64,000 bases of DNA. It comes from a virus. Both the position numbers and the translations under genes were made by a program. The notes under the pieces are model-generated. The model did not search any database. It was not told the origin of the DNA and saw only the letters and a list, made by a program, of their open reading frames with translations. Shown one piece after another: positions 16,124 to 57,374 of the stretch. Numbering within the stretch: the first letter of the stretch is position 1; each line of letters opens with the position of its first letter. The stretch is taken from positions 1 through 64,000 of IMG/VR virus record IMGVR_UViG_3300008108_000067, one strand, 5' to 3'.

Positions 16124-17692
16124 TTAGATTGTTGCCAATCCGTCGATGAAGATTTTGCCGAAGAATTCTGGACGTACGATCTTCTTCGCGTAGCGGGTCA
16201 TTACGCCGCGACGTGGTGTGAAGTTGTTTGGATCGTAGACCAATGGGGTCATGATGAGTGGGATATATGGTGCGTAGACTGCACCAGTTTCGAGGAAGTT
16301 ACTTCCACGGAAGCCCATCAACAATGTGTTTTCGGTCATGTATGGGTTCTTGTAGATTGTGTAACGGTTTTGGAATGAACCAACCTTGGTTACGCCACCT
16401 GCAAATTCCATCTTGTCACCGTCTGTTGCTGCCATAAAACCAGGGATGGTTTCGATGATTGTTGCAACTGTTGGTGAAACCACTGCGAAGTTAGCACCGC
16501 CACGCATTGTGAGTTGGTGGATACGGTTACTGACTTTTTGCATCTTCTGACCAAGTGTTTGGTACCAGGTCATGTTTGTCCAAGCTTGACCACTGAGTGT
16601 TGCACTTGGTACGAATGCTGTACCATTCCATACCTTACCGACTTCTGCGTGCCAGTATTCGGTTGTTGTTGCGTTGTTGATTAACATGTCAAGGATTTCG
16701 AGGTCGATTTCTGTTGAGATGTAATCACTTAACATTGCTGTTAATTCTGCTTCTGCGTCAACACTGTGGTATGCGTTCAAGTCTTGTGCAAGTTCTGGTG
16801 ACCAGACTGCCTTCAACTTACGTGTCTTAGCAACGATTGTTTCTGAACGAAGTTCCAAATCAATTTGTGGAATGTTCAAGTTTGTTACTGAGTTGTCACG
16901 ATCTTCGAAGTCACCACGAGTTGTTTCAGTTGGTTGCTTACTGTATTCAACTGCTGTGATTGTTGCTGCAGCTGCTGCTGAACCACTTACGATGAAGGTT
17001 ACGTTTGTACCATCATACTTGGTGAATTCTGGGAGTAAGTCACCTGTTACGGTGTCTGTAATGCGGAATGAACGAACTGCGTTGAAATCTGCATTTGAGA
17101 AACTTACTGCTGGAACAACGAACTTGAAGAATGATGCAAATGATGAAGAATATGCATCGTTATAGTTTACATCACCGTATGAAGTTACAGATGATGATGC
17201 GATTGCTGGAGCAAGTGTTAATGTTGCATCATTTACTGAGTATGCATATTCACCAGCACCGTAGAAACCACCGCGTGGAAGAACACCTGAACCACTGGTT
17301 GTTCCATATACTGAACCACCTGCTGTCTTACCGTTGATTGTGTTTGCGTACTTGAAGTCCATGAAGAATACCAAACCTGCTGGTAAGTTCATTGGTTGGA
17401 CTGATACGAAGTTCTTCGATGCGATTGAACCGAATACCTTACGTACTAATGGAAGTGCGACACCTGCCCAGTTTTCACCAGCTGTGCCCGAACCACCTGG
17501 GTTTGTGGTTGTTGCTTCTGAAAGAAGTTGTGTTGCTTGGTTTTCCAACATTACTGCCATGCCTTGCTTTTCGTGGCCAGTTAAGCCTTCGAGAAGGCCT
17601 GACTTTTCCCACTTGCCTGCCAATTGGCGGGTCTTTTCAACTACCACGCGGTGTGCTGAACCGGCTTCGTTGATAAATTCTGATACTGACAT
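16124..17692 (-). CDS. Major capsid protein (T4 gp23-like)
   Basis: VSVQPMNLPAGLVF, AKTRKLKAVWSPELAQDLNAYHSVDAEAEL, YAPYIPL, FTPRRGVMTRYA. Confidence 0.97.
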   Translation of the reverse strand: MSVSEFINEAGSAHRVVVEKTRQLAGKWEKSGLLEGLTGHEKQGMAVMLENQATQLLSEATTTNPGGSGTAGENWAGVALPLVRKVFGSIASKNFVSVQPMNLPAGLVFFMDFKYANTINGKTAGGSVYGTTSGSGVLPRGGFYGAGEYAYSVNDATLTLAPAIASSSVTSYGDVNYNDAYSSSFASFFKFVVPAVSFSNADFNAVRSFRITDTVTGDLLPEFTKYDGTNVTFIVSGSAAAAATITAVEYSKQPTETTRGDFEDRDNSVTNLNIPQIDLELRSETIVAKTRKLKAVWSPELAQDLNAYHSVDAEAELTAMLSDYISTEIDLEILDMLINNATTTEYWHAEVGKVWNGTAFVPSATLSGQAWTNMTWYQTLGQKMQKVSNRIHQLTMRGGANFAVVSPTVATIIETIPGFMAATDGDKMEFAGGVTKVGSFQNRYTIYKNPYMTENTLLMGFRGSNFLETGAVYAPYIPLIMTPLVYDPNNFTPRRGVMTRYAKKIVRPEFFGKIFIDGLATI

Positions 17693-17711: not shown

Positions 17712-18905
17712 TTATAGAATGCCTGCGAGTTGTTGTAGACGTTTTGCTACTGTGTTTTCTTCTAAAATTTCTTTCTTTGGCGCGGTACTTGGGGTTGCCT
17801 TACTTGCTAACCCTTCCGTAACCACCTTACTTGATACGGTGCGACCCTTATTCATAGTCTTAGCTGCTACTGACATTGCTTCGACCAATGTTGTGTATAC
17901 CATCTTAACTTCACGAACATTTACTGCACGATCAAATGATTCTAAGATTGTAACTTTTTGTTCGTTGGTCAAACCTTCCTTACGGAAGATTCTGTTGGTA
18001 TATAAGAGTTTTGCGTTTAGAAGATTTACTTCTTGTAGCTTGCCTCGTAGGACATTTACAACCTTACGATATTCTGCGAGCTCATTGTGAAGCGCTGCCA
18101 TTTCAGCTGCCATTTTTTCAGATGATTCTTTTTCTTTTTCATCTTCGGCTTCTAATTCACGGAGAATTGCTTCAATATCAAGTTCTTCTTCGCCTTCACC
18201 TTCTTCGTGACCCTTTTCCATATCCATTCCCATTTCCATTCTTGGTTCGGCTGGATTTACTGCTCTCTTGTGTGGATCAGATGCATCTGTTGCTGCTTCT
18301 GTTTTTCCAATATCTGATGAGTGTGCTGGAATAGTCTTGTCATGAACGTCTGCTGGTGATGCTGCTGGGAGTTTTTCTCCACCTTCTTCACCATCTGCCC
18401 AACTTTCATCCATTTCTTCCTCTTCCTCTTCTTCACCTTCATGCTTAGCTTCGTCGAGTTCTTCTTCTTTTTCCTCTTCTTCAGCTTCTGAAAGTGCCTT
18501 CACATCTGCTTCTAATTCCTTAATTACTTCGTCAAGGTCAAAGTCTGATTCTGACCAGTCATCGTACCAATCAGTACTACTATCAGCTTCTCCCTCACCT
18601 CCTTGATCAATTCCTGATGAATCCCAGGATGCTGCTGAAGGTTCTTTGTTGTCACCTGTGCCGATACCAGATGTATCTTCTGGACCGCCACCTGTTACGT
18701 GAGTTGCGTCTTGGAATGGTTCTTCCTTCGCCTTCTCTTCGGTTTCCATTGTTGCTTCAGCGCGAAGGCGCTTTGCTAACATGGACTTAATTTGGGGTGT
18801 GAATGTTTCTTCCAATGCAATCTTTGCATTTGCGATAGCTGTTTGACGTACAGCTTCTGCATCTGCAATTGCTTGCTTTAGAAGTTCGTTTGTGATTTCT
18901 GCCAT
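17712..18905 (-). CDS. Prohead scaffold/core protein (gp22-like)
   Basis: Acidic, coiled-coil protein immediately upstream of capsid; start chosen at MAEITNELLK with GAGAGG RBS. Confidence 0.75.
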   Translation of the reverse strand: MAEITNELLKQAIADAEAVRQTAIANAKIALEETFTPQIKSMLAKRLRAEATMETEEKAKEEPFQDATHVTGGGPEDTSGIGTGDNKEPSAASWDSSGIDQGGEGEADSSTDWYDDWSESDFDLDEVIKELEADVKALSEAEEEEKEEELDEAKHEGEEEEEEEMDESWADGEEGGEKLPAASPADVHDKTIPAHSSDIGKTEAATDASDPHKRAVNPAEPRMEMGMDMEKGHEEGEGEEELDIEAILRELEAEDEKEKESSEKMAAEMAALHNELAEYRKVVNVLRGKLQEVNLLNAKLLYTNRIFRKEGLTNEQKVTILESFDRAVNVREVKMVYTTLVEAMSVAAKTMNKGRTVSSKVVTEGLASKATPSTAPKKEILEENTVAKRLQQLAGIL

Positions 18906-19035: not shown

Positions 19036-19254
19036 TTACCACTCGGAAGTTTTTCTTTTTTCCTGTTTCTTTTCTTCACGTATCTTACGACGAAGTGCTT
19101 CTTGTTGTTTTAGAATTTTTTTCTTTGACTTTTTAACATAAAATTCGCGGCGTTTTACTTCATTTACAATTTCCGCTTTTTTAACCATTTTTGAGAACTG
19201 TCGTAACGCTCTATCTAAGTCACCCAGTCCTTCTCCTTTTACTTCAACGTGCAT
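19036..19254 (-). CDS. rpsU: Phage-encoded 30S ribosomal protein bS21
   Basis: 72 aa, basic; V.V...LDRALRQF.K.VKKAEIVNEVKRREFYVKKS matches the bS21 pattern; RBS AAGGAGG. Confidence 0.85.
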   Translation of the reverse strand: MHVEVKGEGLGDLDRALRQFSKMVKKAEIVNEVKRREFYVKKSKKKILKQQEALRRKIREEKKQEKRKTSEW

Positions 19255-19626: not shown

Positions 19627-20310
19627 TTATTTCATATTCTTAGCTACATAATTTATTGCTACTTTTCGTACGTTTGAATCTTGCGAATATCCCAATGCAC
19701 TCTTGACCAAAATATCTCTGCCGGTTTGTGGATTCTTAATACGATGTTTTAATAAATCTTTTAGTCGTATTTGTTTCGTTGGTGTCTCACCAGTTTTCTT
19801 GGTATCCTTTTCTTGAGCTTGCTGTACTACCAATTTTGTTTGCGGATACTTTGTAAGTAGTGTTTTAACTGCCTTTACATTTTTGGGAGCATCATCTACG
19901 AATACAATTCTGTCAAATCCATCATTGATATGTTTTTCAATGTACCGTGCTTTTGCCATTGGATCAGAGTTACCCAAAGCAGCAATAGTAATACCAGAAG
20001 TAATTCCTTGTAATTTAAGAAATTTTGCAATAGGTTTGGTGTGACCACGAGCTGTGAGTACAACTATTTTATCAGCTTTCTTTTGGTCAACGACTTTCTT
20101 TAATAAGTCTGTATATTTTTTGATAGGACGAGGATTTTTTAATTGTTCAAACTCCGAAAAATCAAATGTATCACCATCTTGCTTTTCATATGCAGCGTAT
20201 TCCGCTGGTGATATTGTTCTTCGTTTACCGTCCTTATCAATGACAATAACCCTAGCGTCAGTATGCACTAGGGTATCATCAAAGTCCGTAATATATGCCG
20301 TTTTTCCCAC
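19627..20310 (-). CDS. HAD-superfamily phosphatase with C-terminal NPxTxRDI module
   Basis: HAD motifs DFDDTL, LTARG, K and FVDD. Confidence 0.75.
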   Translation of the reverse strand: MGKTAYITDFDDTLVHTDARVIVIDKDGKRRTISPAEYAAYEKQDGDTFDFSEFEQLKNPRPIKKYTDLLKKVVDQKKADKIVVLTARGHTKPIAKFLKLQGITSGITIAALGNSDPMAKARYIEKHINDGFDRIVFVDDAPKNVKAVKTLLTKYPQTKLVVQQAQEKDTKKTGETPTKQIRLKDLLKHRIKNPQTGRDILVKSALGYSQDSNVRKVAINYVAKNMK

Positions 20311-20798: not shown

Positions 20799-21179
20799 CT
20801 ATTTCTCCGAATACATTTCAGGATACAAATATCTAAATTTACGTAGTAATGTACCTGCCATTGCGTTGGCTTCATTTTCAATTTCAGAACCGTCTGTACC
20901 GTCTAGTTCTTTTTGTTCTTCACGTTGTTTGTGATGAACCAATTCATGCGCAAGTGTTCGTAATGTGTCAACCATGTGTCTACCATTTTTGACAATTACA
21001 ATTTCATCATTATCTGGTTGGTATGTACCAAATGTAAGATGTTGTTTGGAATAATCACTACCTACCATTTTAATTTTGGCAGGTAGTGATTTGAGTTGTA
21101 ATTCCTTTGCTGTAAACTTTACAAACTCATTTACTATATTTTTGTTGTAAACTTCGTTTAGTAAAGTTTTTAATTGCAT
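20799..21179 (-). CDS. Zincin-like metallopeptidase domain protein
   Basis: TLAHELVHHKQ (HExxH) plus downstream ENEA; leader MQLKTLLNE. Confidence 0.65.
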   Translation of the reverse strand: MQLKTLLNEVYNKNIVNEFVKFTAKELQLKSLPAKIKMVGSDYSKQHLTFGTYQPDNDEIVIVKNGRHMVDTLRTLAHELVHHKQREEQKELDGTDGSEIENEANAMAGTLLRKFRYLYPEMYSEK

Positions 21180-21185
21180 AAATTA

Positions 21186-21449
21186 TTACTTACCTTTTTT
21201 CTTGGTAGTAATTTTTGCTGCCTTCTTAACCACTTTCTTTCCTGTTTGTTCAACAGCCTTAACTGCTGCGACAACATCCTTGATGTCAACCTTTCCATCG
21301 TTATTGACATCTGCGATATCTTTTGCAGCAGTTTCAACTTTCTTAGCTGCAACAAATAGTGGTTTCTTTTCCATCTCTGTCATATTTTTGTGGTTAATCC
21401 ACCATGCGATAACCACAAGAACAACGACAACACTTAAAAATAGTAACAT
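21186..21449 (-). CDS. Membrane-anchored protein with EF-hand/dockerin-like loop
   Basis: N-terminal TM segment; DVNNDGKVDIKD. Confidence 0.6.
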   Translation of the reverse strand: MLLFLSVVVVLVVIAWWINHKNMTEMEKKPLFVAAKKVETAAKDIADVNNDGKVDIKDVVAAVKAVEQTGKKVVKKAAKITTKKKGK

Positions 21450-21468
21450 ATAAACTCCTTATGAAGAA

Positions 21469-22056
21469 TTATTTTAACTCACCTAGGAAATCGTAGATGA
21501 GAGTATCAATACGAGAATAAGGTGTAATGATTTGAGTTCCCTTATTTTCGTTGATGAACGCACCATGTGTAGATGGGTTACTTACGATGTCAAAACAAAT
21601 AAGAGAAAAATCTTCACCAACTTCTACGGTGTTTTCTCCAATAGGTTTGACTGAACCCAATCCACGCGATGATACACCCAAACGAATATTATTCTTAATT
21701 AATTCACGAACAATATTACCGGACGGAGTAGATAAAATTTCAATATTACCCTTCACATCCGCGCCTTCGAACCAAAGGTCTGTGACGTTACAACAAACAT
21801 TTTTTAGATTTACAACTGGGCTTTCTGGGTGGTCTAATTCACCCAGAGCTCGTCGTTGTGTAACGAAATTATTTTTATATACCATTGCTTCACGTGCCAA
21901 AATATCCTTTGGATAAATTCGACCATTTTGATTTTTATGATCTGCACGTTGTAGTACCACATCTTTCAAAACCAATGGTTTTGAAATGTCGGAAGCTTCG
22001 GTTAATAATTTACTGTCATAAGAAATGACGTTATATTCTACTAGTAGTGATTGCAT
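21469..22056 (-). CDS. Prohead protease (T4 gp21-like)
   Basis: NQNGRIYP, ALGELDHP, LGVSSRGLGS, FDIVSNPSTHGA; start chosen at MQSLLVE. Confidence 0.92.
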   Translation of the reverse strand: MQSLLVEYNVISYDSKLLTEASDISKPLVLKDVVLQRADHKNQNGRIYPKDILAREAMVYKNNFVTQRRALGELDHPESPVVNLKNVCCNVTDLWFEGADVKGNIEILSTPSGNIVRELIKNNIRLGVSSRGLGSVKPIGENTVEVGEDFSLICFDIVSNPSTHGAFINENKGTQIITPYSRIDTLIYDFLGELK

Positions 22057-22057
22057 C

Positions 22058-22552
22058 TTATTGTCCTCTAATTTCACGAATTCGAGTAGCGATACCAAGG
22101 AGTTTTGCTTCCAACTTTAATAATCCTTGTTGGGTACGTTTCCACAGTTGTTCACTTGTAATTCCCGATTCGTTTTTTAAACGAGCGTTCATTCTAATAA
22201 CTCGTTCAACTTCATTTAAATTTTTATTTAACTGAGATATTGCGTCAGCAATTTTCTTGTGTGGTGACTTTGTATCATCATTTCTATATTGATAATATTT
22301 GTTCTCTGCTAATTCGCGTGTCACCACTTCCATCTTATCTGCTGGACGGTTTGCATCTTTTTCACCCTTGGGTGTGAGTTTATATCCAGTTTGATTTGCT
22401 AGATGCTTTGCTCTATCTACATTTGTCTTTTTATTACCACGAAATGCCATAGGAGTTAGATAACCAGCAACCATGCCAGTTGTTGACATTTCATCCAATT
22501 CTTTCTTAATCAGTTCACGGATAGTTTGACGAAGCGCTTCTTTTTTGTCCAT
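22058..22552 (-). CDS. Hypothetical prohead-region protein
   Basis: Between portal and protease; N-terminal LRQTIRELIKKELDE. Confidence 0.55.
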   Translation of the reverse strand: MDKKEALRQTIRELIKKELDEMSTTGMVAGYLTPMAFRGNKKTNVDRAKHLANQTGYKLTPKGEKDANRPADKMEVVTRELAENKYYQYRNDDTKSPHKKIADAISQLNKNLNEVERVIRMNARLKNESGITSEQLWKRTQQGLLKLEAKLLGIATRIREIRGQ

Positions 22553-22554
22553 AA

Positions 22555-23439
22555 TTAACTCTTCAAATTGTCTAACGTTTTGGTAATTTCCAAAGCGATA
22601 AGTAACGCTGTCATATGATTTTCTTTAATGACTTGTGTAGTCTTAATTTTTTCCAGCTGACTAACTACTTCTGACAACTTAATTTTTACAATTTTGTCTT
22701 GTACGTAATTAAGTTTAGACTTGATTTCCGTTATTAATACGTTACATTCACTAACTGCACACTTACGAAGTGTTGCACTGTTAGACACATTATTAATGTA
22801 TTCACGAAGAAGATTTTTCTGACGGTCATTCAATCCTTGATATTTTTCGTTGAATTTTTCCATCAAAATTTTGTATGACAACAGACGTAAATCTTCTTCT
22901 TGTCCCTTGACGGTTTCGAATAACGCTGTGTCGTTTTTAATTTCTTTGTTGGTAATCGTACCACTTAAATGTTCTACTATGGTAAACTTTGCTTCTACCA
23001 TTCCTTCGATTTCATTGAAATCTTTAAGTTCGTTGATAACCCCATCAAAAACTTTATACACGGATGCGTAAACTTTGTATGACGGAACACGGGCACCCAA
23101 AAATTCTTTTAAGTCATAATTATTTTTTATTTCTTTAATTAACTTATATTTTTGAGTGTTAAGTGCTATCTCATTAAGTTTCTTACGTTGATTAATAATA
23201 AGATTTAATAATTCGAATGCCTTTGCTTCACTTAAATGCGAAGCATTGAAAAATGATCTATACAGAATTAATTCTTTACCTAGTTCTGTTTTAGAGTTGA
23301 AGTACTCCTTCATTAGCTTAACTGCAACATCGCTGTTACGGTTCTCTAATGCATCGGAGGTGATTTTACGGACTAATAATTCAAAGAGAATGCCCGTATT
23401 CCGTATTTTATTGTGCTTGACGTTAGATTTCATACACAT
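22555..23439 (-). CDS. Hypothetical prohead-region protein
   Basis: 294-aa helical protein directly downstream of portal. Confidence 0.55.
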   Translation of the reverse strand: MCMKSNVKHNKIRNTGILFELLVRKITSDALENRNSDVAVKLMKEYFNSKTELGKELILYRSFFNASHLSEAKAFELLNLIINQRKKLNEIALNTQKYKLIKEIKNNYDLKEFLGARVPSYKVYASVYKVFDGVINELKDFNEIEGMVEAKFTIVEHLSGTITNKEIKNDTALFETVKGQEEDLRLLSYKILMEKFNEKYQGLNDRQKNLLREYINNVSNSATLRKCAVSECNVLITEIKSKLNYVQDKIVKIKLSEVVSQLEKIKTTQVIKENHMTALLIALEITKTLDNLKS

Positions 23440-23496
23440 CCCGTTTTGGTGACATTATACCGTCATATATTAAATATAACGAATATTTATAAGACT

Positions 23497-25380
23497 TTAA
23501 TTTTCTAGGTCCAAAATGTTACTTTCGTCCAACAATGTTTGTGAAGATAAGGTAGATTCCATAATAATTTTTTTAGAATTTGCCTTATTCAAGAATGCTT
23601 GTACTTCCAAAGATAGTGGTGATTTACGTTTGTCGTTTCTCTGCTTACCCACTTTAAAAACTTTTTTATTTTCTTTGTGTCCTAGTGGATCACGACCTCG
23701 TGGGTGACTATCTTGACCAAATTTCATTCCTTCTCGTGGACGACCCATCTTAGCTTCTTCTAATTCTTCCTCTGGAATTTCCAGTTCACTTTCTTCACTT
23801 GGTTCTTCAAGAGAGGATAAAATGGTATTAACATCATCTATTTGTTGATCTTGTTCCGGAGCTGCCTGACTGTCTGGTTCTCCTGCGGGAAGTTCCTCTG
23901 GTGGTGCTTCCGTTGGCTGACCTGCCTGTTGCTCAATTCCAGTCAACTCCGACATACGTTTGACATCTTCTATAATCTTTTTACGTTCCGTAATAATTTC
24001 ATCTTCTGATAATTCTAGGATGTTGTGGTAAACCCAATCTTGGGATAACATCTTAGATTCCATAATTTGTGTAGCAACACCTACCTTTTCCTTCCACAAA
24101 TTTAATTTTTCTTGTTCGTAGATGACCGATGGATTGGTTAATGATAGTTCAAAATCAACTAAATCTTCATCTGTAAATCCTTGAACGTATAGATGGATAA
24201 TCGCAATCTTAGTTAATTCCGATACCATGATTCTCTGGATACGTTCGATTGTACGAGCAAATCGTACATCTTGCGCAGCCAACGTAGCTTTTCCACTAAT
24301 ATCTTCATCATATCCTATAAATGATTTGGGGACTTTAAATGCTGCCAAAAGTTTTCTACGGAGATATTCAATATCTTCAATTGCATTGAATTGTAACCCA
24401 GGAAGATTCTGAATGTCAGTACCACTATCTTTTCCACGGGTTGGTAAGAAGAAATCTTCTGTGATATTTTGCATATTATATCGAAGATTATAATCACCCG
24501 TTTGTGGATCAACTAATGGTGTCTTTTTCATACGGTCAATAATACGACTCATAAACGTATCAATTTCGGCAGGTGGTATATTACCAATATCTACTAAAAT
24601 CTTACGTTTATCTGGTGCTCTCATAATACGATGAATTAACATCGCATCTTCCATCAATTGAAGTTGCTTCCACACACGACGACCACCTTCAATCATACTT
24701 TTTCCATATGGAAGGAAGTTGGTGTCTGCTAATAATCGGAAGTGGGCAATTTCGTAATTATCAAATTCTGTTTTACCCAGTGCCAAGAAATCGTTTTCAA
24801 TCTTGAATTTTACAGAGAATGGATTGCCTGGGTCTTGTCCTTCAATACGGATGGTTTCATATACAGATAACGGCAATACGTTGACAACACCATATTCCGG
24901 GTCAATGTCGAGATATAAGAAGAAATCTCCATACTTACACATATTTCTGACCCACGGCCAGAGATTAAATTCTACGTTGAGAATGTCGTAAAATAAATTG
25001 TGAAGAATTTCTTGTATTTGAGTGTTTTTTGAATGGATACTGATTATTTGATTGAATTCGTCTTTAACAGTACTTTCGTCTGCATAGATATCCATAACCG
25101 ATGCGATAATAGGGTCATTATCCATCATGTCGTAGTCACGGAATAATTGTAACCGTGAACCTTGGAACGCCGCGGCTGCTTCATATCGTCCGTGGGCAGA
25201 ACCATATCCACCCGTCATTGACGAATAGACGCGATGGTATCTATCAATACCGCGTCTATTGATAAATGCTTGAATATTATCGGTGTCTGCGATTCTTAAC
25301 TTTTTTCCACCAACATTACGAACTATCGTGTTAGAAGAAAAAAGTTTCTTTAATCTGCCAAATATGCCGTTGTCAGCCAT
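23497..25380 (-). CDS. Portal protein (T4 gp20-like)
   Basis: WKQLQLMEDAMLIHRIMRAPDKR..VDIGNIP, EDFFLP.RG...GTDI..LPG, IEDIEYLRRKL.AAFKVP. Confidence 0.95.
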   Translation of the reverse strand: MADNGIFGRLKKLFSSNTIVRNVGGKKLRIADTDNIQAFINRRGIDRYHRVYSSMTGGYGSAHGRYEAAAAFQGSRLQLFRDYDMMDNDPIIASVMDIYADESTVKDEFNQIISIHSKNTQIQEILHNLFYDILNVEFNLWPWVRNMCKYGDFFLYLDIDPEYGVVNVLPLSVYETIRIEGQDPGNPFSVKFKIENDFLALGKTEFDNYEIAHFRLLADTNFLPYGKSMIEGGRRVWKQLQLMEDAMLIHRIMRAPDKRKILVDIGNIPPAEIDTFMSRIIDRMKKTPLVDPQTGDYNLRYNMQNITEDFFLPTRGKDSGTDIQNLPGLQFNAIEDIEYLRRKLLAAFKVPKSFIGYDEDISGKATLAAQDVRFARTIERIQRIMVSELTKIAIIHLYVQGFTDEDLVDFELSLTNPSVIYEQEKLNLWKEKVGVATQIMESKMLSQDWVYHNILELSEDEIITERKKIIEDVKRMSELTGIEQQAGQPTEAPPEELPAGEPDSQAAPEQDQQIDDVNTILSSLEEPSEESELEIPEEELEEAKMGRPREGMKFGQDSHPRGRDPLGHKENKKVFKVGKQRNDKRKSPLSLEVQAFLNKANSKKIIMESTLSSQTLLDESNILDLEN

Positions 25381-25393
25381 AACCCCTCAACTG

Positions 25394-25744
25394 TTAGTAG
25401 ATATATAATTCGTCTAATGCAATAACCGTTAGACGAACTGCTTCCGTATCTAATCCCGTAGTTGGTTTTTGCAATAGACTGTTTAATTTTTCGTGTAATG
25501 CACGTGCTGGTATTACTACATCTACGAGTTCTTTCATATGCCATGCGGACATTGTATTATAATTGTATGGCATTTCATTGACCGCAGTAATACCTTCCAT
25601 TAACTTTGCTACCAATTCGGTAATTTCATTCTGCTGCGACTCTTTTAAAGAGGGCATTAATTTTTCAAGTAGGGCAACTAATCGTGTAGAATTAATACGA
25701 TTTTCCTTACCTGCTTCTGTTACTAAGTGTGTTAACTTAATCAT
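25394..25744 (-). CDS. Small protein with MIKLxxLxxE leader
   Basis: MIKLTHLVTE N-terminus. Confidence 0.6.
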   Translation of the reverse strand: MIKLTHLVTEAGKENRINSTRLVALLEKLMPSLKESQQNEITELVAKLMEGITAVNEMPYNYNTMSAWHMKELVDVVIPARALHEKLNSLLQKPTTGLDTEAVRLTVIALDELYIY

Positions 25745-26102
25745 GCTTCTTCTCCTTATCTAATGCTCTTCGCATTTTCTTAACATCTTTTGGTTTCGGT
25801 GCGCCTCGAATGACACCACCAGGTCCAACTAATCCCATTGCGGGTGCCGCTGCCGCTGGTGCTGCTCCTGCCATTTGTTCCGAAACCTTTTTCTCTACGT
25901 TCTTTAATAATAGAGAATAATACTTTGGATTTTCTTTCAAATGTGCTGCTGCAATTTTTGCAGTCTTAACCACGTTTCCGTGGGTCACATCTTGATGTTC
26001 CAATTCAGTATTCATTCCCAAAAAGAATTCTGTTGGGTTAAACTTATAACCCATTTTATCTAACATCTTGTCGGATTGTTTCCGTGAAATTTTCTTTTTC
26101 AT
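25737..26102 (-). CDS. Small hypothetical protein (DUF5661-like)
   Basis: GMNTELEH.D......TAKIA.AHLKE.PKYY pattern. Confidence 0.55.
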   Translation of the reverse strand: MKKKISRKQSDKMLDKMGYKFNPTEFFLGMNTELEHQDVTHGNVVKTAKIAAAHLKENPKYYSLLLKNVEKKVSEQMAGAAPAAAAPAMGLVGPGGVIRGAPKPKDVKKMRRALDKEKKHD

Positions 26103-26105
26103 ATG

Positions 26106-26660
26106 TTACCAAGTACGACATGCCCAGTAACGAGCTTTCGTTCTTGGACCTGGGTTATCACAGTTGTGTCTAGCACGGAATGCTTTACGGCGAGAAGGAA
26201 TGTTCTTTTTAATTTTCATTGTCTTTTCACCACGGCGTTTTGCCGAAGTTCCACCGTGACCAAAGCTAACTTTCTTAATATTTCCACTCTTTGGGTCACG
26301 AACATATACCTTGAACTTCTTGACATCCCCTCTCATAATCTTACCAAGAGGAACTTTACGTCCTTGGTATTCTGCTTCACCAAGTTGATTTTCGTGTAGT
26401 CCTTCAAGAACTTCTATTAAACACTCATTACAGAACTCGCCTTCATGTAATTCATCAACTGCTTCCGAACCAAATTGGTTACGTTCGTGGTCTTGGTCTG
26501 GTTTGAAGTCACTATCCGAAGTAACATCACTTTCTGGACGATGATATAATTCTTTAACTGGAACACAGTTTGGAACCATTTTACCGTTTAGTTCCTTCAT
26601 TCCAACTTGCTTATATCCGTCCCAGCAGGATTCACATAGAATATCAGTCAATCTAATCAT
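26106..26660 (-). CDS. Modular basic Cys-containing protein with MIRLxDILxE leader
   Basis: Start chosen at MIRLTDILCE; modules CWDGYKQVGMK...VPNCVP and AEYQGRKV...FRARHNC...ARYWAC. Confidence 0.65.
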   Translation of the reverse strand: MIRLTDILCESCWDGYKQVGMKELNGKMVPNCVPVKELYHRPESDVTSDSDFKPDQDHERNQFGSEAVDELHEGEFCNECLIEVLEGLHENQLGEAEYQGRKVPLGKIMRGDVKKFKVYVRDPKSGNIKKVSFGHGGTSAKRRGEKTMKIKKNIPSRRKAFRARHNCDNPGPRTKARYWACRTW

Positions 26661-26683
26661 AGTTGCTCTCAATGTCAAGAGTT

Positions 26684-27010
26684 TTATTTCTTTTTAAAAG
26701 TAGAAACCATAGTTGGTTTTCCACCTGGATTTCCTGCTTTTCTCTTTCTTGTTACAGCTGAACGTTTTTCACCTTTACTCATTGCTGCTGCGGAACGAGC
26801 AGGTCTACATTTTGGATATTTAGCCGACCCACCTTTACGCTCTTTTTTACCAGCGGAAGCACCACACGGTGGATGCTTTCCAGTTTTCGGGTCTTTTCTG
26901 GAAATATCCACCCATTTTTGCTTCAACCACTTACCCAATTCACCTTTTGGTTTATACTTCTCATCCAAAATATCTTCGGTAAGTTCAACTAAAATATCTT
27001 GTAATTTCAT
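26684..27010 (-). CDS. Basic Cys-containing protein with MKLxDILxE leader
   Basis: MKLQDILVE; LGKWLKQKWVDI...PCG...YPKCRP. Confidence 0.65.
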   Translation of the reverse strand: MKLQDILVELTEDILDEKYKPKGELGKWLKQKWVDISRKDPKTGKHPPCGASAGKKERKGGSAKYPKCRPARSAAAMSKGEKRSAVTRKRKAGNPGGKPTMVSTFKKK

Positions 27011-27372
27011 TACTTTAAGAACTTCAACTTATAAATTGTGGAATTCACCAATCCAGAAATTTCATCTACGATATTATTGAGGTCACCATCTTGTGGCAAT
27101 CCCTTGCGAACACTATCAATATAGGTTGATAATCCAGTAAAATACTTTACTATTTCATCACCTTCGAAGTATTGCTTTTGTGGAGTATATCCACGAATAA
27201 TACCATAACGACCTTGGCAGGTTTCTGCGTACTTATCTACCAAATCTACGATATCATCATAGTATTCATTCAATGCCTTGTGAGCGGCATATGATGAAGT
27301 TTGTAAGTGGAAGATGTGTGCTTGGTCACGACTATTGAATAGTGTGGACAAAAACTTTGCTACGGTTCCCAT
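27010..27372 (-). CDS. Ferritin/Dps-like four-helix protein
   Basis: QAHIFHLQT.SYAAHKALNEYYD.I.DLVD..AE...DEI..L...T.YKL. Confidence 0.65.
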   Translation of the reverse strand: MGTVAKFLSTLFNSRDQAHIFHLQTSSYAAHKALNEYYDDIVDLVDKYAETCQGRYGIIRGYTPQKQYFEGDEIVKYFTGLSTYIDSVRKGLPQDGDLNNIVDEISGLVNSTIYKLKFLK

Positions 27373-28019
27373 TACATTGCTCCAGCGTCAGAGGCTGGTT
27401 GCTCCTTTTGTCCGTATTCGTGATAACTTGTATTTGCTTGGTCCAAGTTATTTTCTGCCACTGCGATATGGTCTTGAATCCATGCTGGAATGTCCTTTTC
27501 GTCCATTCCAAGCTTACCCTTTAATTCGGTTGCGTGACGGATGATGGAGTCAAGAGTTTTAGTTGCCATTGAAACTTCGTGATCTTCACCTTCAGCACCT
27601 TCCTTCTTCATTGCCTTGCCGATTGCGTCACGACGAGCTTGTAAATACTTGTCGGAAGAGTCTTTATCTCCATCGTTATCAATGTCACCATCTTCTTTAC
27701 CAACTGGATCCATTGCTTCCAGTTGTGCGATTAATTCATCAAGTTTTGCAGATTGTTCTTCGGAGAGTTCAGTTTCTTCCTTGAGCTTCTTCAAGGTCAT
27801 AGCTAAACGAGCACGTTGGCCTAGCTTACCACCCTTTTCGGCAGCAGCCTTTAACTTACCGGCTGGGATTGGTTCATCTGCCGATACACCAAGTTGTTTC
27901 TTTAATGCACCTGGTTTCTTGATTGCTTGTTGAATCCACTTTTCTTCTTCGTTCATCGAACCAACTGGTTTGTTACCAATTGCTTTAATACCAGGTACTA
28001 ATCCCATTAATTTAATCAT
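27372..28019 (-). CDS. Modular hypothetical protein with EF-hand-like loop
   Basis: MIKL leader; modules KWIQQAIKKPGAL..., DPVGKEDGDIDNDGDKDSSD and EDHEVSMA...PAWIQ. Confidence 0.65.
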   Translation of the reverse strand: MIKLMGLVPGIKAIGNKPVGSMNEEEKWIQQAIKKPGALKKQLGVSADEPIPAGKLKAAAEKGGKLGQRARLAMTLKKLKEETELSEEQSAKLDELIAQLEAMDPVGKEDGDIDNDGDKDSSDKYLQARRDAIGKAMKKEGAEGEDHEVSMATKTLDSIIRHATELKGKLGMDEKDIPAWIQDHIAVAENNLDQANTSYHEYGQKEQPASDAGAM

Positions 28020-28035
28020 CGTGCTTCTCCAAATG

Positions 28036-28518
28036 TTATAGGGAGGTTTGTCCCTTCTTTTTTGCTATTAAATACCGCTTATATAAATCTCTTTTTGCTT
28101 TCATCAACTTATCTGTTAAATCTACCTTTCCATCATTGTTGATGTCTGCGTCCTCTTGACCCATTGGATCACGACGAACGTGTGGATAATGTACTTCTTT
28201 CTTACCACTTCTCCATCCACCACCCATACTCTTGTACTTTTTTGCTGCCCATAAGTTAGCGTATGCTGATGGATAGACTTTAAACTTACGTTTTGCAGCT
28301 GCCTTGGCTGCAGCCCACTTTGATGGATTGGTTGGAATTGACTTTTCTAATAATGCGGAAAGTTCTTCCATTTTTTGTAGTCGTGGGTCTGCAAAGTCAC
28401 TTTCAGTTTCTTTATATCCACCCCACGGATAACCTTCATCTTGTTTGCAATCACAACCTTCGGTTTGCAAACAACCACAATCCTCAAAGATATATGAATA
28501 GTAATCCTTGTAATTCAT
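28036..28518 (-). CDS. Modular basic protein with EF-hand-like loop
   Basis: Start chosen at MNYKDYY; KFKVYPSAYAN.W..K.YK..GGGW; DPMGQEDADINNDGKVDLTD. Confidence 0.6.
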   Translation of the reverse strand: MNYKDYYSYIFEDCGCLQTEGCDCKQDEGYPWGGYKETESDFADPRLQKMEELSALLEKSIPTNPSKWAAAKAAAKRKFKVYPSAYANLWAAKKYKSMGGGWRSGKKEVHYPHVRRDPMGQEDADINNDGKVDLTDKLMKAKRDLYKRYLIAKKKGQTSL

Positions 28519-28520
28519 TG

Positions 28521-28817
28521 TTATTTTGCCTTCTTTTTCTTTTTGGAATCTATTGCTCTGTTGGTAGCTGTTGCATATAGGTATGACTTCCAATCGTCAC
28601 CAAATTTATCTTTGAAATAACGAACCGAACGTTTGTTTTTTAGTAATTTCTTACCAATCTTATCACGACCTTGAACTTGTCCCTTGGTCATCTTTCGTGG
28701 TGGTTCACGACTTGCAACCGTACGTTCGTCGAGTTCCTCTTCTTCTGGCTTTTGCATTTCTTGAAGAACTGCTGCCAATTCTTCACGGATGATTTCTAAA
28801 ATTTCATCTTTGGTCAT
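28521..28817 (-). CDS. Hypothetical protein
   Basis: ILEIIREELAAVLQE N-terminus; basic C-terminal FKDKFGDDWKSYLYATAT. Confidence 0.6.
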   Translation of the reverse strand: MTKDEILEIIREELAAVLQEMQKPEEEELDERTVASREPPRKMTKGQVQGRDKIGKKLLKNKRSVRYFKDKFGDDWKSYLYATATNRAIDSKKKKKAK

Positions 28818-28820
28818 ATC

Positions 28821-28979
28821 TTATACCGGTTTAGATTTGGTTACACCACCACGTTTGCGTTTTTTACGTCCTGCGCAATGTGCTTTTTGACTGAAACCTT
28901 TGGGGTTACTACAATTTATGGACTTTTTATACTTCTTTGTCCATTTTTCAGTTAGTAAAATATCAACTAGTTTAATCAT
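28821..28979 (-). CDS. 52-aa basic protein with MIKLxDILLxE leader (below ORF-track cutoff)
   Basis: MIKLVDILLTEKWTKKYKKSINCSNPKGFSQKAHCAGRKKRKRGGVTKSKPV; promoter box 27 nt upstream. Confidence 0.7.
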   Translation of the reverse strand: MIKLVDILLTEKWTKKYKKSINCSNPKGFSQKAHCAGRKKRKRGGVTKSKPV

Positions 28980-29005: not shown

Positions 29006-29015
29006 TATAAATAGT
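29006..29015 (-). promoter_or_regulatory. Putative late promoter box ACTATTTATA
   Basis: Exact copy heading the small-protein cluster. Confidence 0.65.
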
Positions 29016-29018
29016 GTA

Positions 29019-30605
29019 TTATCCTAGTAACCACGATATATTTTCCTTCTTACCACCAATTTCCATTTCATATGGATTGTGTGTAACATGCTTATTTGTG
29101 TACACCATACCTTCTACACTATACCTTGTCTTGTCCAATGTTAACTTCGTCAGTTCTATACCCTCCTGGCGCAACCTGAGGGCGGTGTCCCGTACCCATA
29201 GACCTATACACAATGCCATCGTCAAGTCATCGTTATAACCAGATAATGCTTCTGGTCTACCGTTCTTCCAAATAAAAGTATCTAATTCGGCGCACATACG
29301 AGATGACCGAATAGTAAAACTATTTTCTAACATATATTCTTTTAATCGTGCGATAACCAACGGACGAGTTCTTTGCGAGGTGGTGAACCCAGGTACCATA
29401 TTTCGTTCTTCACGATAATACTTTCCGGTCATTTGATGCTCGACATCCACATATTGTAAATCTTTGGACATATAAAAGAGATTTTTATATCCTCGGTCTA
29501 TAACTTGTTGTATTGCGTTCCATCCTATACTACTATTTTCTGGGATGAGTAGTGCATCATTGTATTCTGTTGCGATGGACACCAACATATTACCAAACTG
29601 TTTGGTTTCTACCTTTCCTTTATATTCTGCCACTTGGGTTGACGTTTCTACATCAATCACATGAAATGCGGAATAGTCCTCACCATCTCCACGAGATACG
29701 TCAGCCGAAACAATATAGGATTTCCCGGATTGTGGGTACTCCCATATCCATAAGTTTCCATCAAACCCACCCTTACTAATAGGTTCTTTCACAAACGTGG
29801 ATTTGTAGAATTCAATAATTTCTGGTGGGACAACTGTATTACCTGAGAATATAAACGAGGCATCATGTTCTTGTGCTGCCTGCATTTCACCAAGAATTTC
29901 TGTTTGACGGTCACGCCATGCCTGGTCACGTTCTGGATGTACTTGCCAATCCAACAAGATTGGATTAAATTCGTTTGCTTGACTTTCTGCTTGTTGCCAC
30001 ATCTTGTGGAAGAAGTTACCCACACCGTTTGGAGTGGAAATAAGAATAGCTTTTCCACCCGTGGATAACGTACTTGATGCTGCCGTCCAGATAATGTCGG
30101 CGTTATCAATAAATGCACACTCGTCAAGAATCAATAGAGACAATGCTTCGGAACGTCCAGCGTCTTTACTACTTGCCACAGCTTTAATCTGTGACCCGTT
30201 GGTAAATTGTAATGACAGTTTATTATCTGTTAATATTTCACCACGTAACCACACAGGAAGGTTTTGATGCATAAAACGAACTTTGGTTACTAAGTTTTTT
30301 GCAGTTTCTTGCTTGGTTGCGATAACAAGAATATTCTTGTCTTTGTGAAACAACATCAACCACAACGCATACCCCGCAACTAATGTAGAGAAACCTAACT
30401 GACGCCCTTTAAGTACAATGTTATATCGGTTTTCTTCAAACTCTCCCATCGCCTTTGCTTGGTATGGATATAAGTCAAACAACACCCGACCACGAATCGG
30501 GTGTTGAATATACGAATATTTAGATAAAAAGTACTCAGGCTGGAGTGCGCACTTTTTATATTCTTCTTTAATACGTTCACGTAACTGTTGTGCTGTTGTA
30601 TTCAT
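29019..30605 (-). CDS. Terminase large subunit (T4 gp17-like)
   Basis: KGRQLGFST (Walker A), LLILDECAF (Walker B), ISTPNG, nuclease SADVSRGDGEDYSAF and NDDLTMA. Confidence 0.95.
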   Translation of the reverse strand: MNTTAQQLRERIKEEYKKCALQPEYFLSKYSYIQHPIRGRVLFDLYPYQAKAMGEFEENRYNIVLKGRQLGFSTLVAGYALWLMLFHKDKNILVIATKQETAKNLVTKVRFMHQNLPVWLRGEILTDNKLSLQFTNGSQIKAVASSKDAGRSEALSLLILDECAFIDNADIIWTAASSTLSTGGKAILISTPNGVGNFFHKMWQQAESQANEFNPILLDWQVHPERDQAWRDRQTEILGEMQAAQEHDASFIFSGNTVVPPEIIEFYKSTFVKEPISKGGFDGNLWIWEYPQSGKSYIVSADVSRGDGEDYSAFHVIDVETSTQVAEYKGKVETKQFGNMLVSIATEYNDALLIPENSSIGWNAIQQVIDRGYKNLFYMSKDLQYVDVEHQMTGKYYREERNMVPGFTTSQRTRPLVIARLKEYMLENSFTIRSSRMCAELDTFIWKNGRPEALSGYNDDLTMALCIGLWVRDTALRLRQEGIELTKLTLDKTRYSVEGMVYTNKHVTHNPYEMEIGGKKENISWLLG

Positions 30606-31829: not shown

Positions 31830-34682
31830 TCAGTTTGATATTGCTTTTTTAACTATACTCATTGCTGCGGTATATACTGGTTCTTTTTTATCGTATTTTA
31901 ACGCGGTTCCTACAAATATATCTCTATCCGTTTTTGGATTTCTAACTTTCTGTTTTAATACCTTTGCCAAAGTTTGACGTTTTGCCGGTGGTACGTTTGA
32001 TACCATATCTTTGGGTGATTTTGTCGGTGTAACTTTTGGCTTTTGTTTCATTTTTGGAGCAGTTACATCTTTACCATGTGTCTGCGTCAACTTCAAAGCT
32101 TCCTCTGAATCTGTTGTTACTTTAACAATTTTATCAAAGATTTTTTTGTCAAATTTACCGTATACTTTGGTAAATATTTCTTGCTTTGCTCTATCTGTTA
32201 TGTTTGGATTTCCCATAACAGACCGAAGTTGTGTACCACTAATATTTTTACCATCAATTTGTAGTTGCATCTCAGGAGCAACTATAAAGTATCCTTGATC
32301 TGCGTATCCTTTGAGGTCTTTTTCTGGTACTTCTTCGTATGGTTTGAAATATTTTCCTCCCAACCGGTCAGCATCTTTTTGACTGACTGCTGTAACGTAC
32401 ACCGCGTCTGGTGGTAATTTACTTAATACTTCCGATGGTGCGTATGGATTTTTAACTTGTATTACGTTATCGTCTGGTATTCCAAACATACGAGTCATAA
32501 TTTCTTTTTTGTCTTTGAACCCGAACGGTGATTTGGTTGCATCGGTTTTATCGCTCGATGCGATATATACATTATCTTTACCAAATTTCTTTACCATTGC
32601 TTGATAGATACTATAATGTCCAGCATGAAATGGTTGAAATCTTCCGGTAAATATAGCAGCAATTTTACGTTCCCCAACAGGTGTGGGTTCTGTCTTTTGC
32701 GCTTCCGGTTCTTTCTTTGGTTCTTCTACTGGTGCTTCTTCGGCTTTACCCTTCGCAAACTTCAAAGTTCCTAAAATTTGATTTACTGGTGCGAATGTAC
32801 CTGTAAATTTATATGGTTTGCCGTTATATATAAACACCAATCCTTCTGATGGTACGACATTATCAATACCAATATCGTCCAATCGTTCAATTTGTGTTTG
32901 TAGTTTTGCAAGTTTATTTATATCGTCTGTATCTTGTAGAGACTTAATAGTATCTAATAATTCTTTCTTCAACGATGCAGTTAATTCTGGATTGTTTGCC
33001 GATAACGTATTGGTAACACGACGAAGTGTATCAGCTCCTACTTTCAGAAAAATACTTTCTAATGGGCGTGTAACAGCTCGTTCCGAATTCGTTAATTCAG
33101 TTGCTTCAAATTGCCTAAACCATTTTTTGGTTTCTGGATCTTCAAAGTCCTTAACTCCAATAGCTTTCTTGTCTCCCGTTGCCCATCGTTTAACCAATCC
33201 ATTAAATTGTTCTTCCGATAATTCCAATCCTTGTGTTTCTACTTGTCTGGTAAGTTCTCTTTCCCACCATGCTATTTTATAATCTTCCAAGGTATTTTTA
33301 TCGTCAAGATCAAATTCTTGTTGTAGTCGTGTCAATGCTGCACCATACTCTTGCATTTTTTCTTTATTACGAGCAGTATCTGCGTCGCTAAATGCAATAC
33401 TACGTGGTCCAGATATACCAAACGTTTTTTGTTGCTGTGCGTTTACTTTTGTAATTTGATCAGAAAGTTTTTTACTATCCTCTATATCACGACCAATTTC
33501 GTTTCCTTCTTCGTCGTATTTAACAGTTCCATGAAATACCAAAACACTCTTGTCGTATGGTATAACGTTCTTTGTGTCTGGAAATATTATCTCAACGTTC
33601 ATAAATTTTGAACCGTCAGCAAACATCTGATCACGTTCTTCTTGTGGTAAAGCTTGAATAGCTTTAGTGATATCATCCGCAGCACCACCAAAAGCTTTTT
33701 CAACGTTACCTCGTCCGGCAAACATCTGTCGTAAATCTGCCGCAGGTAGTGCGTTTTTTGCTTTATTTTTTACTTGGCCTTTATTACGAGCAAAAACAAC
33801 TTGACCATCTCTAACAGAAAACATGATATTTTGTCCATCAAGTTTTTCTGTGACAGGTGCTTCCGCATCTAACCCACCTACCAATCCACGTTTAATCATT
33901 TCTTTTACATCAGAAAACTTTAATGTATCATCTTCATACGGATGTGCTAAATGTCCTGCCGCACCACCCTCAGATATTAATTGCCATGGACCATTAGGAA
34001 CATTACCTTCATATAGTTCAGAAAGATAAACATATTCTAAGCCTTCATTCTTTTTATCTCGTCCGTGGTCTTTACGAGCAAGTTTCCAGTTACCATTTTT
34101 TGCACCATTGGGATGATGTACATCATGGTTTTTCATTTTTGATTTGCCGTACTTCTTAACTGCCTTTTTGCGGTCACGGTTACGGGCAACACGGTCATCC
34201 TGAGTCTTTTTAAGGTAGTTACGAACTTTTTCGGGATGACGGCGATTGTATCTCCGCATTCGTTCCGTGCTTGATAGTGCTTCATTATTGATGAATTCAT
34301 CATCATGCTCCGGTCCAATAGAGTAAGGGTATGCAAATGCATTATCTTTATTTTGTGGTTTAATTTCATCCACTCCACCTTCACCTGCACCTGTCTCTCC
34401 ACCAGTATCACCGCTGTCTGTTGGTGGTGTTGTTGGTTCTTCTGCTGGTTGTTCACCAGTTTTTATTACACGAGGATATAATGGATAGAAAAATCCATAA
34501 TTTTTTATTTTTTCTTTTGCTTTTTTACGCTTCTTCTTCATCTCATCCATTGAATCTGTGTGATTAATGGTTAGTTCACCAACAAGTTCTGGTGCCAACT
34601 TCGCAACCAAAAAATTATGTTGGTCAACATATTCATTTTCATTCAATATATTTTCAAATAAATTATTTATTGGATTACTCAT
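31830..34682 (-). CDS. Multidomain protein: degenerate HNH-like segment + ligase-like (KxDG) domain + HxGH nucleotidyltransferase + C-terminal NPxTxRDI module
   Basis: HDVHHPNG; TEKLDGQN...EGLVF...YKFTG; IFTGRFQPFHAGH...ISGTQLR. Confidence 0.7.
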   Translation of the reverse strand: MSNPINNLFENILNENEYVDQHNFLVAKLAPELVGELTINHTDSMDEMKKKRKKAKEKIKNYGFFYPLYPRVIKTGEQPAEEPTTPPTDSGDTGGETGAGEGGVDEIKPQNKDNAFAYPYSIGPEHDDEFINNEALSSTERMRRYNRRHPEKVRNYLKKTQDDRVARNRDRKKAVKKYGKSKMKNHDVHHPNGAKNGNWKLARKDHGRDKKNEGLEYVYLSELYEGNVPNGPWQLISEGGAAGHLAHPYEDDTLKFSDVKEMIKRGLVGGLDAEAPVTEKLDGQNIMFSVRDGQVVFARNKGQVKNKAKNALPAADLRQMFAGRGNVEKAFGGAADDITKAIQALPQEERDQMFADGSKFMNVEIIFPDTKNVIPYDKSVLVFHGTVKYDEEGNEIGRDIEDSKKLSDQITKVNAQQQKTFGISGPRSIAFSDADTARNKEKMQEYGAALTRLQQEFDLDDKNTLEDYKIAWWERELTRQVETQGLELSEEQFNGLVKRWATGDKKAIGVKDFEDPETKKWFRQFEATELTNSERAVTRPLESIFLKVGADTLRRVTNTLSANNPELTASLKKELLDTIKSLQDTDDINKLAKLQTQIERLDDIGIDNVVPSEGLVFIYNGKPYKFTGTFAPVNQILGTLKFAKGKAEEAPVEEPKKEPEAQKTEPTPVGERKIAAIFTGRFQPFHAGHYSIYQAMVKKFGKDNVYIASSDKTDATKSPFGFKDKKEIMTRMFGIPDDNVIQVKNPYAPSEVLSKLPPDAVYVTAVSQKDADRLGGKYFKPYEEVPEKDLKGYADQGYFIVAPEMQLQIDGKNISGTQLRSVMGNPNITDRAKQEIFTKVYGKFDKKIFDKIVKVTTDSEEALKLTQTHGKDVTAPKMKQKPKVTPTKSPKDMVSNVPPAKRQTLAKVLKQKVRNPKTDRDIFVGTALKYDKKEPVYTAAMSIVKKAISN

Positions 34683-57026: not shown

Positions 57027-57374
57027 TTACTTACTCAATCCCAACTTTTTCATTACGGCGCTGTAATCTTTCGTGATAGCTTCTACAGCCGGTTTGAACG
57101 CTGGATCATTTAAATTAACACCTTGTGGGATATTTTCTGGAAGTACCACATTATTTGTGGTTGCCATAATGGTATCTCCGTGGCGTTCCAATCCCATCAT
57201 CGCAGCCAACTTTGAACGGTCAAGTTTTGGCTTACTGGACGCCGATGCAGTTTCGTTAACTTGTTGTATACCTTTAATTTGGGCTACAGCTTCTCCCAAA
57301 AGGTTGGGAAGAATTCTATTAACTTCTTCTTCGACAACGGTTCTGATGTATGCTTTTAGTAATGTTTTGTCCAT
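57027..57374 (-). CDS. Hypothetical protein
   Basis: LKAYIRTVVEEEV N-terminus; AITKDYSAVMKK C-terminus. Confidence 0.55.
   Translation of the reverse strand: MDKTLLKAYIRTVVEEEVNRILPNLLGEAVAQIKGIQQVNETASASSKPKLDRSKLAAMMGLERHGDTIMATTNNVVLPENIPQGVNLNDPAFKPAVEAITKDYSAVMKKLGLSK

Follow-up and report, generated by a model that had tools for sequence, protein, structure and literature searches.

Putative capsid targeting leaders on unrelated small proteins in the head module of an uncultured T4-like phage

Phage T4 loads its internal proteins into the head by means of a capsid targeting sequence (CTS), an N-terminal propeptide removed by the prohead protease gp21. In the T4 record (NC_000866) the internal proteins IPII and IPIII both start with MKTYQEFIAE; IPI, Alt and gp24 have propeptides as well. 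In IPIII the ten N-terminal residues are enough for packaging, with residues 4 and 7 serving in targeting and residues 8 and 10 in processing; gp21 cuts after L/I-x-E and itself carries such a site, LIE-9 (PMC9026906). The active site of gp21 stays blocked by nine residues of its own N-terminus until these are removed (PMC9958956). The internal proteins of T-even phages form a highly diverse set in which only the CTS is conserved (PMC3012670). Here we describe a putative system of this kind in a 64,000-nt stretch of viral DNA, positions 1 to 64,000 of IMG/VR record IMGVR_UViG_3300008108_000067 (hereafter, the window). Nine proteins of its head module have an N-terminal leader ending in hydrophobic-x-Glu, and we consider it probable that these tagged proteins are head proteins with propeptides of CTS type, which the S77 (gp21-type) protease of the same phage processes.

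We distinguish three types of leaders: type 1, MI[KR]LxD[IL][IL]xE; type 2, a sequence of about 20 residues with the pattern ...IREE...LxE; and type 3, an aromatic form, MxYKDFFxE. Judged by its layout, the type-1 leader is a lineage variant of the known T4 CTS rather than the 'distinct targeting code' claimed in the initial annotation of this DNA, because its conserved positions 4, 7, 8 and 10 and its acidic position 6 match the ten-residue layout of MKTYQEFIAE. The likeness extends further: a propeptide of 10 to ~20 residues precedes unrelated proteins; type-1 leaders are hydrophobic at positions 4, 7 and 8, acidic at 6 and have Glu at 10; the putative cleavage site is of the L/I-x-E form and an S77 protease is encoded nearby; small mature parts, most of them basic, follow the leader; and both the protease and the capsid protein carry the motif near their own N-termini. 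The type-3 leader is closer still to the T4 tag than type 1. On the other hand, the window differs from T4 in its consensus and in having two further leader classes (types 2 and 3), in the number of tagged proteins (about nine against a handful), and in their placement, since most of the tags lie in one island between the terminase and portal genes while the T4 ip genes are scattered.

A generalised CTS pattern, applied to T4 as a positive control, recovered IPII, IPIII, gp24 and Alt; as a regular expression for genome-wide counting it was rejected as too loose, with about eight other T4 proteins matched too. A near copy of the IPII/IPIII CTS, MKTFKEFIKE, opens T4 gp61.1 (NC_000866 18966-19130 (−), locus L240), a 54-aa hypothetical protein encoded next to the primase gene.

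The giant phages phiKZ and SPN3US make a second point of comparison: there, too, a diverged protease of gp21 type cleaves propeptides behind a Glu, and paralogues have a conserved N-terminus; however, the propeptides of their ejection and inner-body proteins are mostly >100 residues long, with S/A/G-x-E or A-x-E sites (PMC5694885), whereas the window leaders have 9-24 residues and a hydrophobic P3. Similar to the window, the hyperplastic internal-protein loci of T-even phages consist of variable, non-homologous genes with only the targeting leader in common; unlike them, the window island is situated inside the head operon and is absent from relatives with 50-55% portal identity.

The window belongs to a 90.9-kb virus contig with genes almost all on the minus strand, as are all the window genes located below. 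By its T4-type terminase, gp20 portal and S77/gp21 protease the window phage is a distant T4-like myophage. The T4-type large terminase gene (29019..30605; PF03237) bounds the island upstream, and the gp20-type portal gene (23497..25380; PF07230, E = 1.5e-65) follows 3.6 kb later. The first island gene (28821..28979) encodes a 52-aa protein in which the type-1 leader MIKLVDILLTE (nt 28947-28979) precedes a very basic 41-aa peptide with two Cys and pI 11. It is followed by a 98-aa protein with a 20-aa type-2 leader ending in VLQE and a basic mature part (28521..28817), and by a 160-aa protein (28036..28518) in which the type-3 leader MNYKDYYSYIFE (pattern MxYKDYY..IFE) stands before a Cys cluster, a DUF5872-like N-terminal motif and a DxDxDG loop. 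A 215-aa acidic protein with PHROG module matches (27372..28019) has a long variant of the type-1 leader, MIKLMGLV...SMNE-24, of 24 residues. Three more type-1 leaders are found in the island: MKLQDILVE on a 108-aa protein (26684..27010) with more LTE/LDE sites and a basic, two-Cys mature part; MIRLTDILCE on a 184-aa protein (26106..26660) in which an acidic linker joins a CWDGYKQVG Cys module to a C-terminal domain of DUF5872 type; and MIKLTHLVTE on a 116-aa protein (25394..25744) that continues as a four-helix bundle. Downstream of the portal gene, a 164-aa basic protein (22058..22552), in the gp67/gp68 position by T4 gene order, starts with a 21-aa type-2 leader ending in ELDE followed by a conserved STTG..AGYLTP, and a 126-aa HExxH metallopeptidase of M78/IrrE type (20799..21179) starts with the type-1 leader MQLKTLLNE. 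The nine leaders thus comprise six of type 1, two of type 2 and one of type 3. All the N-termini quoted in the initial annotation are real and occur at the minus-strand starts it gave (28979, 28019, 27010, 26660, 25744 and 21179, as well as 22056 for the protease and 17692 for the major capsid protein), and its second leader type is present at 28817 and 22552; it overlooked the type-3 leader at 28518, and the leader at 28019 is longer than listed, ending at SMNE-24.

The Glu is enriched at a fixed distance from the hydrophobic core. In N-termini picked by the hydrophobic core only, with no Glu required, Glu occurs at +2 after the hydrophobic pair in 64 out of 137 cases and at +3 in 13 out of 137, against 8 out of 72 in an internal-Met control and a background E frequency of 7.7%. 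Information content among 61 distinct 10-aa leaders amounts to 2.5-3.7 bits at positions 2, 4, 6, 7, 8 and 10 and to 0.3-0.7 bits at positions 11-16; leader conservation reaches only to the Glu. In the alignment of the family of the 25744 protein (families are named here by the start of the window gene) just three columns are invariant, that of E10 being one, and indels begin immediately behind E10; orthologues of the 28019 protein have leaders of 15-24 aa that always end in x-x-E directly before a conserved EEKWIQ start. That the leaders end in the L/I-x-E motif of gp21-type proteases, as first proposed, was borne out.

The leaders are concentrated in the head module. Over the whole 90.9-kb genome, a start with MI[KR]L is found in four of the nine terminase-portal genes and in none of the 101 others. 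Any of the three leader types is present in 9 of 22 head-module genes versus 2 of 96 genes elsewhere (Fisher p = 2.4e-6), where one of the nine (21449) and both outside matches look like hydrophobic or other false positives. The pattern goes beyond what chance would give. Beside the island between terminase and portal, we inspected for tags two enzymes of the window phage, a 950-aa ligase/NMNAT enzyme (31830-34682) and a HAD-like phosphatase (19627-20310), and found none. A 115-aa protein encoded among tail/baseplate genes (57027-57374 (−)) starts with MDKTLLKAYIRTVVEEEV...LLGE, resembling a type-2 leader; it has no Pfam or PHROG match and no homologue in the fetched loci.

A repeat or cassette at the DNA level upstream of the tagged genes was considered and rejected, as the upstream regions are dissimilar and the codons vary. 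The conserved leader residues are encoded by varied synonymous codons (six Leu codons at position 4; AAA, AAG, AGA, CGT, CGA and CGG at position 3), which indicates selection on the peptide and not on RNA. Common descent of the cargo was rejected as well, by an all-against-all BLASTP comparison and family scans: the mature parts are mutually unrelated, except for a short DxDxDG-type module common to the 28518, 28019 and 21449 proteins.

One exact decapeptide recurs widely. A back-translated search with MIKLKDLLKE identified 98 IMG/VR stretches, where a rough base-composition estimate, assuming ~1e11 bases in the collection, gives an expected number of chance matches well below one. The decapeptide opens 84 open reading frames (ORFs) of 69-502 residues in 80 of the 98 loci, in 79 of the 84 at the first in-frame ATG after a stop, and the mature parts behind it fall into 30 clusters unrelated by BLAST.

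A search with the portal protein yielded at least 599 related IMG/VR stretches, of which the best 80 were analysed. In these relatives the leader is kept on orthologues of the 25744 protein in 24 of 25 cases, of 27010 in 16 of 18, of 28979 in 9 of 11, of 28817 in 16 of 20, of 22552 in 45 of 58 and of 28518 in 14 of 15, and it persists even where identity over the remaining sequence has dropped to 25-30%. No leader was found on the relatives' portal (0/76), on orthologues of the 23439 protein (0/67), or on the S21, scaffold and capsid proteins, nor in any of 21 orthologues of the untagged DUF5856 protein (27372). Within several cargo families the leader is gained, lost or replaced. Six of 23 orthologues of the DUF5661 protein, untagged in the window, have a type-1 leader such as MIRLRELLLSE or MILLRDLLTE; orthologues of the M78 peptidase start with MRLKALLNE, MKLMDLLYE or MDSRDKFFLNE, or have no leader; members of the 26660 family start with MIRLTDILCE or with the short MENLTE. 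These exchanges support the earlier suggestion that the leader is a portable N-terminal tag on unrelated proteins. In one relative (L028) a domain of the 25744 type is fused behind ~125 residues of another protein, and the junction, PIRLTSLLNE, is an internal copy of the leader without Met; the arrangement suggests a cleavable two-part precursor.

The prohead protease gene (21469..22056) is identified by PF03420 (E = 2.8e-26) and phrog_207 (E = 7e-48), and its product is 34% identical to T4 gp21, which bears out the earlier statement that the phage encodes a gp21-type protease. The columns of His85 and Ser140, which we take to be the catalytic residues of T4 gp21, are kept (GELxHP and GVSSRGLGS). 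Its own N-terminus carries MQSLLVE-7 and a second site, LLTE-20; the counterpart in T4 gp21 is LIE-9. The tag and the S77 family tend to occur together. PF03420 was detected in seven of nine large contigs with the exact MIKLKDLLKE, including both contigs rated complete; the two tag-bearing contigs where it was not detected are fragments rated 34-44% complete. The widespread DUF5872-type domain of the 26660 protein offers a comparison across viruses. In four viruses without S77 (Pelagibacter phages Kolga and HTVC026P, Roseobacter phage CRP-902 and a Nitrosopumilaceae spindle-shaped virus) the DUF5872-type proteins start directly at the domain (MAKYKGRTVKLNKP and similar). A leader precedes the domain in three of four S77 phages examined: MIRLTDILCE in the window, MIRLQEIVG in Flavobacterium phage immuto and MKKFKQYIDE, close to T4's own tag, in kyanovirus Phage C48C1. 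The homologue in the fourth S77 phage, HTVC008M, has no clear leader at its annotated start.

The predicted mature products have masses of 4.6-21 kDa, with pI of 9.2-11 in six out of nine. The predicted cargo includes two very basic two-Cys peptides, a six-Cys protein with a DUF5872-type domain and the M78-type HExxH peptidase. In the latter (20799-21179) the motif HELVH is present, PF06114 matches at 23.4 bits (cut-off 22; E = 5.4e-5), and the PHROG match is to the phrog_87 metallo-protease. Of the cargo labels given in the initial annotation, the Zn peptidase (now above the Pfam cut-off) and the basic Cys modules stood; the EF-hand-like label found no such support, as the EF-hand and dockerin matches of the 21449, 28518 and 28019 proteins fall below the Pfam cut-offs (EF-hand_1, 18.1 vs 25.4 bits; Dockerin_1, 19.1 vs 22.9 bits) and only a DxDxDG-like segment is left. 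When the 25744 family is modelled with AlphaFold2, residues 1-12 have pLDDT <50 and the remainder forms a four-helix bundle with pLDDT >90. In the model the invariant leader is thus not packed on its own domain, as would be expected for a peptide that binds a partner. Searches of the bundle with ESM Atlas and Foldseek gave only generic four-helix bundles (Avd-like, TM ~0.6, E >0.1) and no significant PDB match.

The island does have a candidate promoter box of its own, as had been claimed: a late-promoter-like TATTTATA is located at 29006-29013 (−), 20 nt upstream of the ATG at 28979, and heads the island. The octamer TATTTATA has 11 minus-strand copies in the window (spanning 1491-60697), and nine of them lie 20-35 nt upstream of the ATG of structural/late genes, with starts at 1463, 7604, 10799, 13507, 16008, 28979, 36499, 44229 and 60667. 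Since nine of 11 copies precede such genes, we regard TATTTATA as a candidate late-promoter consensus of the window phage, a possible counterpart of the T4 late promoter. The island genes lie in one operon with the head genes, all on the minus strand, and have the box in common with other structural genes.

We propose the following course of events. Late in infection, the island would be transcribed from its own late-type promoter. The leader, predicted to form a short and flexible amphipathic helix at the N-terminus (hydrophobic at positions 4, 7 and 8), would dock on the scaffolding core during prohead building, its presumed docking partner being the product of a scaffold-like gene (17712..18905). 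After shell closure the S77 protease would cut after the Glu of hydrophobic-x-Glu, freeing the small, mostly basic proteins of 4.6-21 kDa inside the head, where they would remain beside the DNA and, at infection, probably exit together with it. The terminase-portal island would serve as a lineage-specific, changeable store of cargo genes. Docking, cleavage, virion residence and ejection of the tagged proteins are steps that we infer from sequence comparison; delivery into the host is plausible, if less certain than the CTS-type role itself.

Several observations weigh against a CTS-type role. Hydrophobic-x-Glu is short, and many more such sites occur inside the mature parts (nine in the 25744 protein alone), so that cutting must depend on accessibility. 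The co-occurrence of tag and S77 is based on a small sample without a base rate. Two island genes, for DUF5856 (27010..27372; a Dps-like, 'starvation-inducible' protein by Pfam and PHROG) and for DUF5661 (25737..26102; Pfam), have no leader. Leader codons are mostly AT-rich and could also aid translation initiation. The type-1 regular expression also matches the N-terminus of the terminase in 10 relatives; we consider these matches false positives because the helix there is part of the fold and conservation continues past the Glu into EYKKCA. In relatives the tag is also found on enzymes (P-loop kinase, Nudix and HAD phosphatase) whose presence in capsids is not established. A search of a paper library revealed no relevant virion proteome for Microcystis phage Mel-JY01 or immuto and no mention of the leader strings; it held no paper on Mel-JY01, and the listed papers that name immuto are on other topics.

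With respect to the enzymes, MITLTELLEE is found on a HAD-like protein of a complete 177-kb relative (G003 146011-146565) and MGKLINILLSE on an NMNAT-like protein of Mel-JY01 (11243-13162). These starts hint that HAD-like and NMNAT-like enzymes may be capsid cargo in other lineages.

If the leaders do target proteins to the prohead and are cut there, the tagged proteins could still be accessory parts of the core or scaffold, degraded and expelled at maturation and not delivered to the host. T4 gp67 and gp68 are degraded and expelled in this way during head maturation. The type-2 protein at 22552 occupies the place of gp67/gp68 and is found in nearly all members of the clade, and several precursors have multiple internal hydrophobic-x-Glu sites, as such parts might. 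However, the island varies from 6 to 13 ORFs among close relatives, which suits dispensable cargo better than assembly parts, and a peptidase and confidently folded domains are among the cargo; we judge this explanation unlikely.

An explanation without any link to the capsid would be that a favoured amphipathic start, acting as an AT-rich codon ramp or as an oligomerisation or stability helix, has spread among small genes. The AT-rich leader codons are in line with it, as are similar helices on the terminase and a few tag-like N-termini that lack the Glu, e.g. MKTLKELLRK in HTVC008M. This would not explain why the residues are conserved through varied codons, including CTC, CTG, CGT and CGG, why Glu is strongly enriched at a fixed distance and conservation ends exactly there, or why the tag marks 9 of 22 head-module genes as opposed to 2 of 96 others and tracks genomes that encode S77. 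We give it little credence.

That the tagged genes are paralogues, the leader being the best-kept remnant of their ancestor, could be argued from their adjacency and from the short DxDxDG-type module that three of them have in common; yet the mature parts match different Pfam and PHROG families with otherwise no BLASTP similarity, the exact decapeptide precedes 30 unrelated clusters, and leaders are gained and lost within orthologous families, which makes such an origin very improbable. A secretion or membrane-insertion signal, suggested by the N-terminal position and partly hydrophobic character of the leader, is hardly credible, as the leaders lack what a Sec signal combines, a positively charged n-region and behind it an unbroken hydrophobic core (two or three consecutive hydrophobic residues at most, Asp at 6, Glu at 10), and true hydrophobic N-termini in the same loci, such as 21449, look quite different.

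Of all phage products, those carried in the head and injected are the first that the host encounters; T4 examples are IPI, an inhibitor of a restriction enzyme, and Alt, which modifies RNA polymerase. If the tag in the window works as in T4, it would provide a way to spot, by sequence alone, the injected payload of aquatic T4-like phages, a large group that is abundant and uncultured; it would show that cargo is recruited by gain of a ten-residue leader, and would supply another natural CTS with which foreign proteins could be packed into capsids. T4 has already revealed the mechanism, so that the gain is in breadth and predictive use rather than in principle. More tentatively, the three leader classes could serve for addressing in a T4-like clade that is very large and uncultured, a system in which type 1 would mark an exchangeable injected payload for host takeover or anti-defence, types 2 and 3 would mark other places or copy numbers in the core, and the terminase-portal island would be a hot spot that captures payload genes via ten codons. 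Were this true, a simple search for the tag would reveal which proteins thousands of uncultured phages inject.

The size and content of the island change with distance. In relatives with a portal at least 70% identical the terminase-portal gap is 3-5.5 kb long and holds 6-13 small ORFs in changing order and content, of which from about a quarter to nearly 90% are tagged. At ~60% portal identity the gap is reduced to ~1 kb and at 50-55% to 9-17 bp, the two genes being nearly as close in immuto and Mel-JY01. The shrinkage of the gap and its changing content point to the island as a derived, plastic insertion. More distant complete genomes have four or five genes with type-1 tags, scattered in the manner of the T4 ip genes. 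The closest cultured phages by portal identity are Mel-JY01 (47%) and immuto (44%), and a megablast search of the island against GenBank phages gave no match. Both cultured phages have tags of their own: MIKLIDLLTE, MISIYNILKE and MRLLELLRE in immuto (vB_FspM_immuto) and MIKLKSLL.E on three paralogues in Mel-JY01. In immuto (MW353176/MW353177, loci L001 and L004) an N-terminus MEN(x)FDLKKFLVENKLT recurs on three or four proteins at least, which otherwise differ, and several starts of MKKSQLRxIIKE type are present too.

The remaining genes of the head module are mostly of familiar kinds. A conserved 294-aa protein (22555..23439), untagged and found in 67 related loci, had no match in Pfam and PHROG scans. 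The scaffold-like gene product, an acidic coiled-coil protein recognised by position and composition and with an N-terminus conserved in relatives, had no family match in the same scans. The gp23-type major capsid protein (16124..17692; phrog_138, E = 1.3e-68) starts with MSVSEFINE followed by a conserved AGSAH. A gene for ribosomal protein bS21 (19036-19254) is situated inside the head module between the genes for the HAD-like enzyme and the scaffold-like protein, and at the matching position in Mel-JY01 the annotation shows RpsU.

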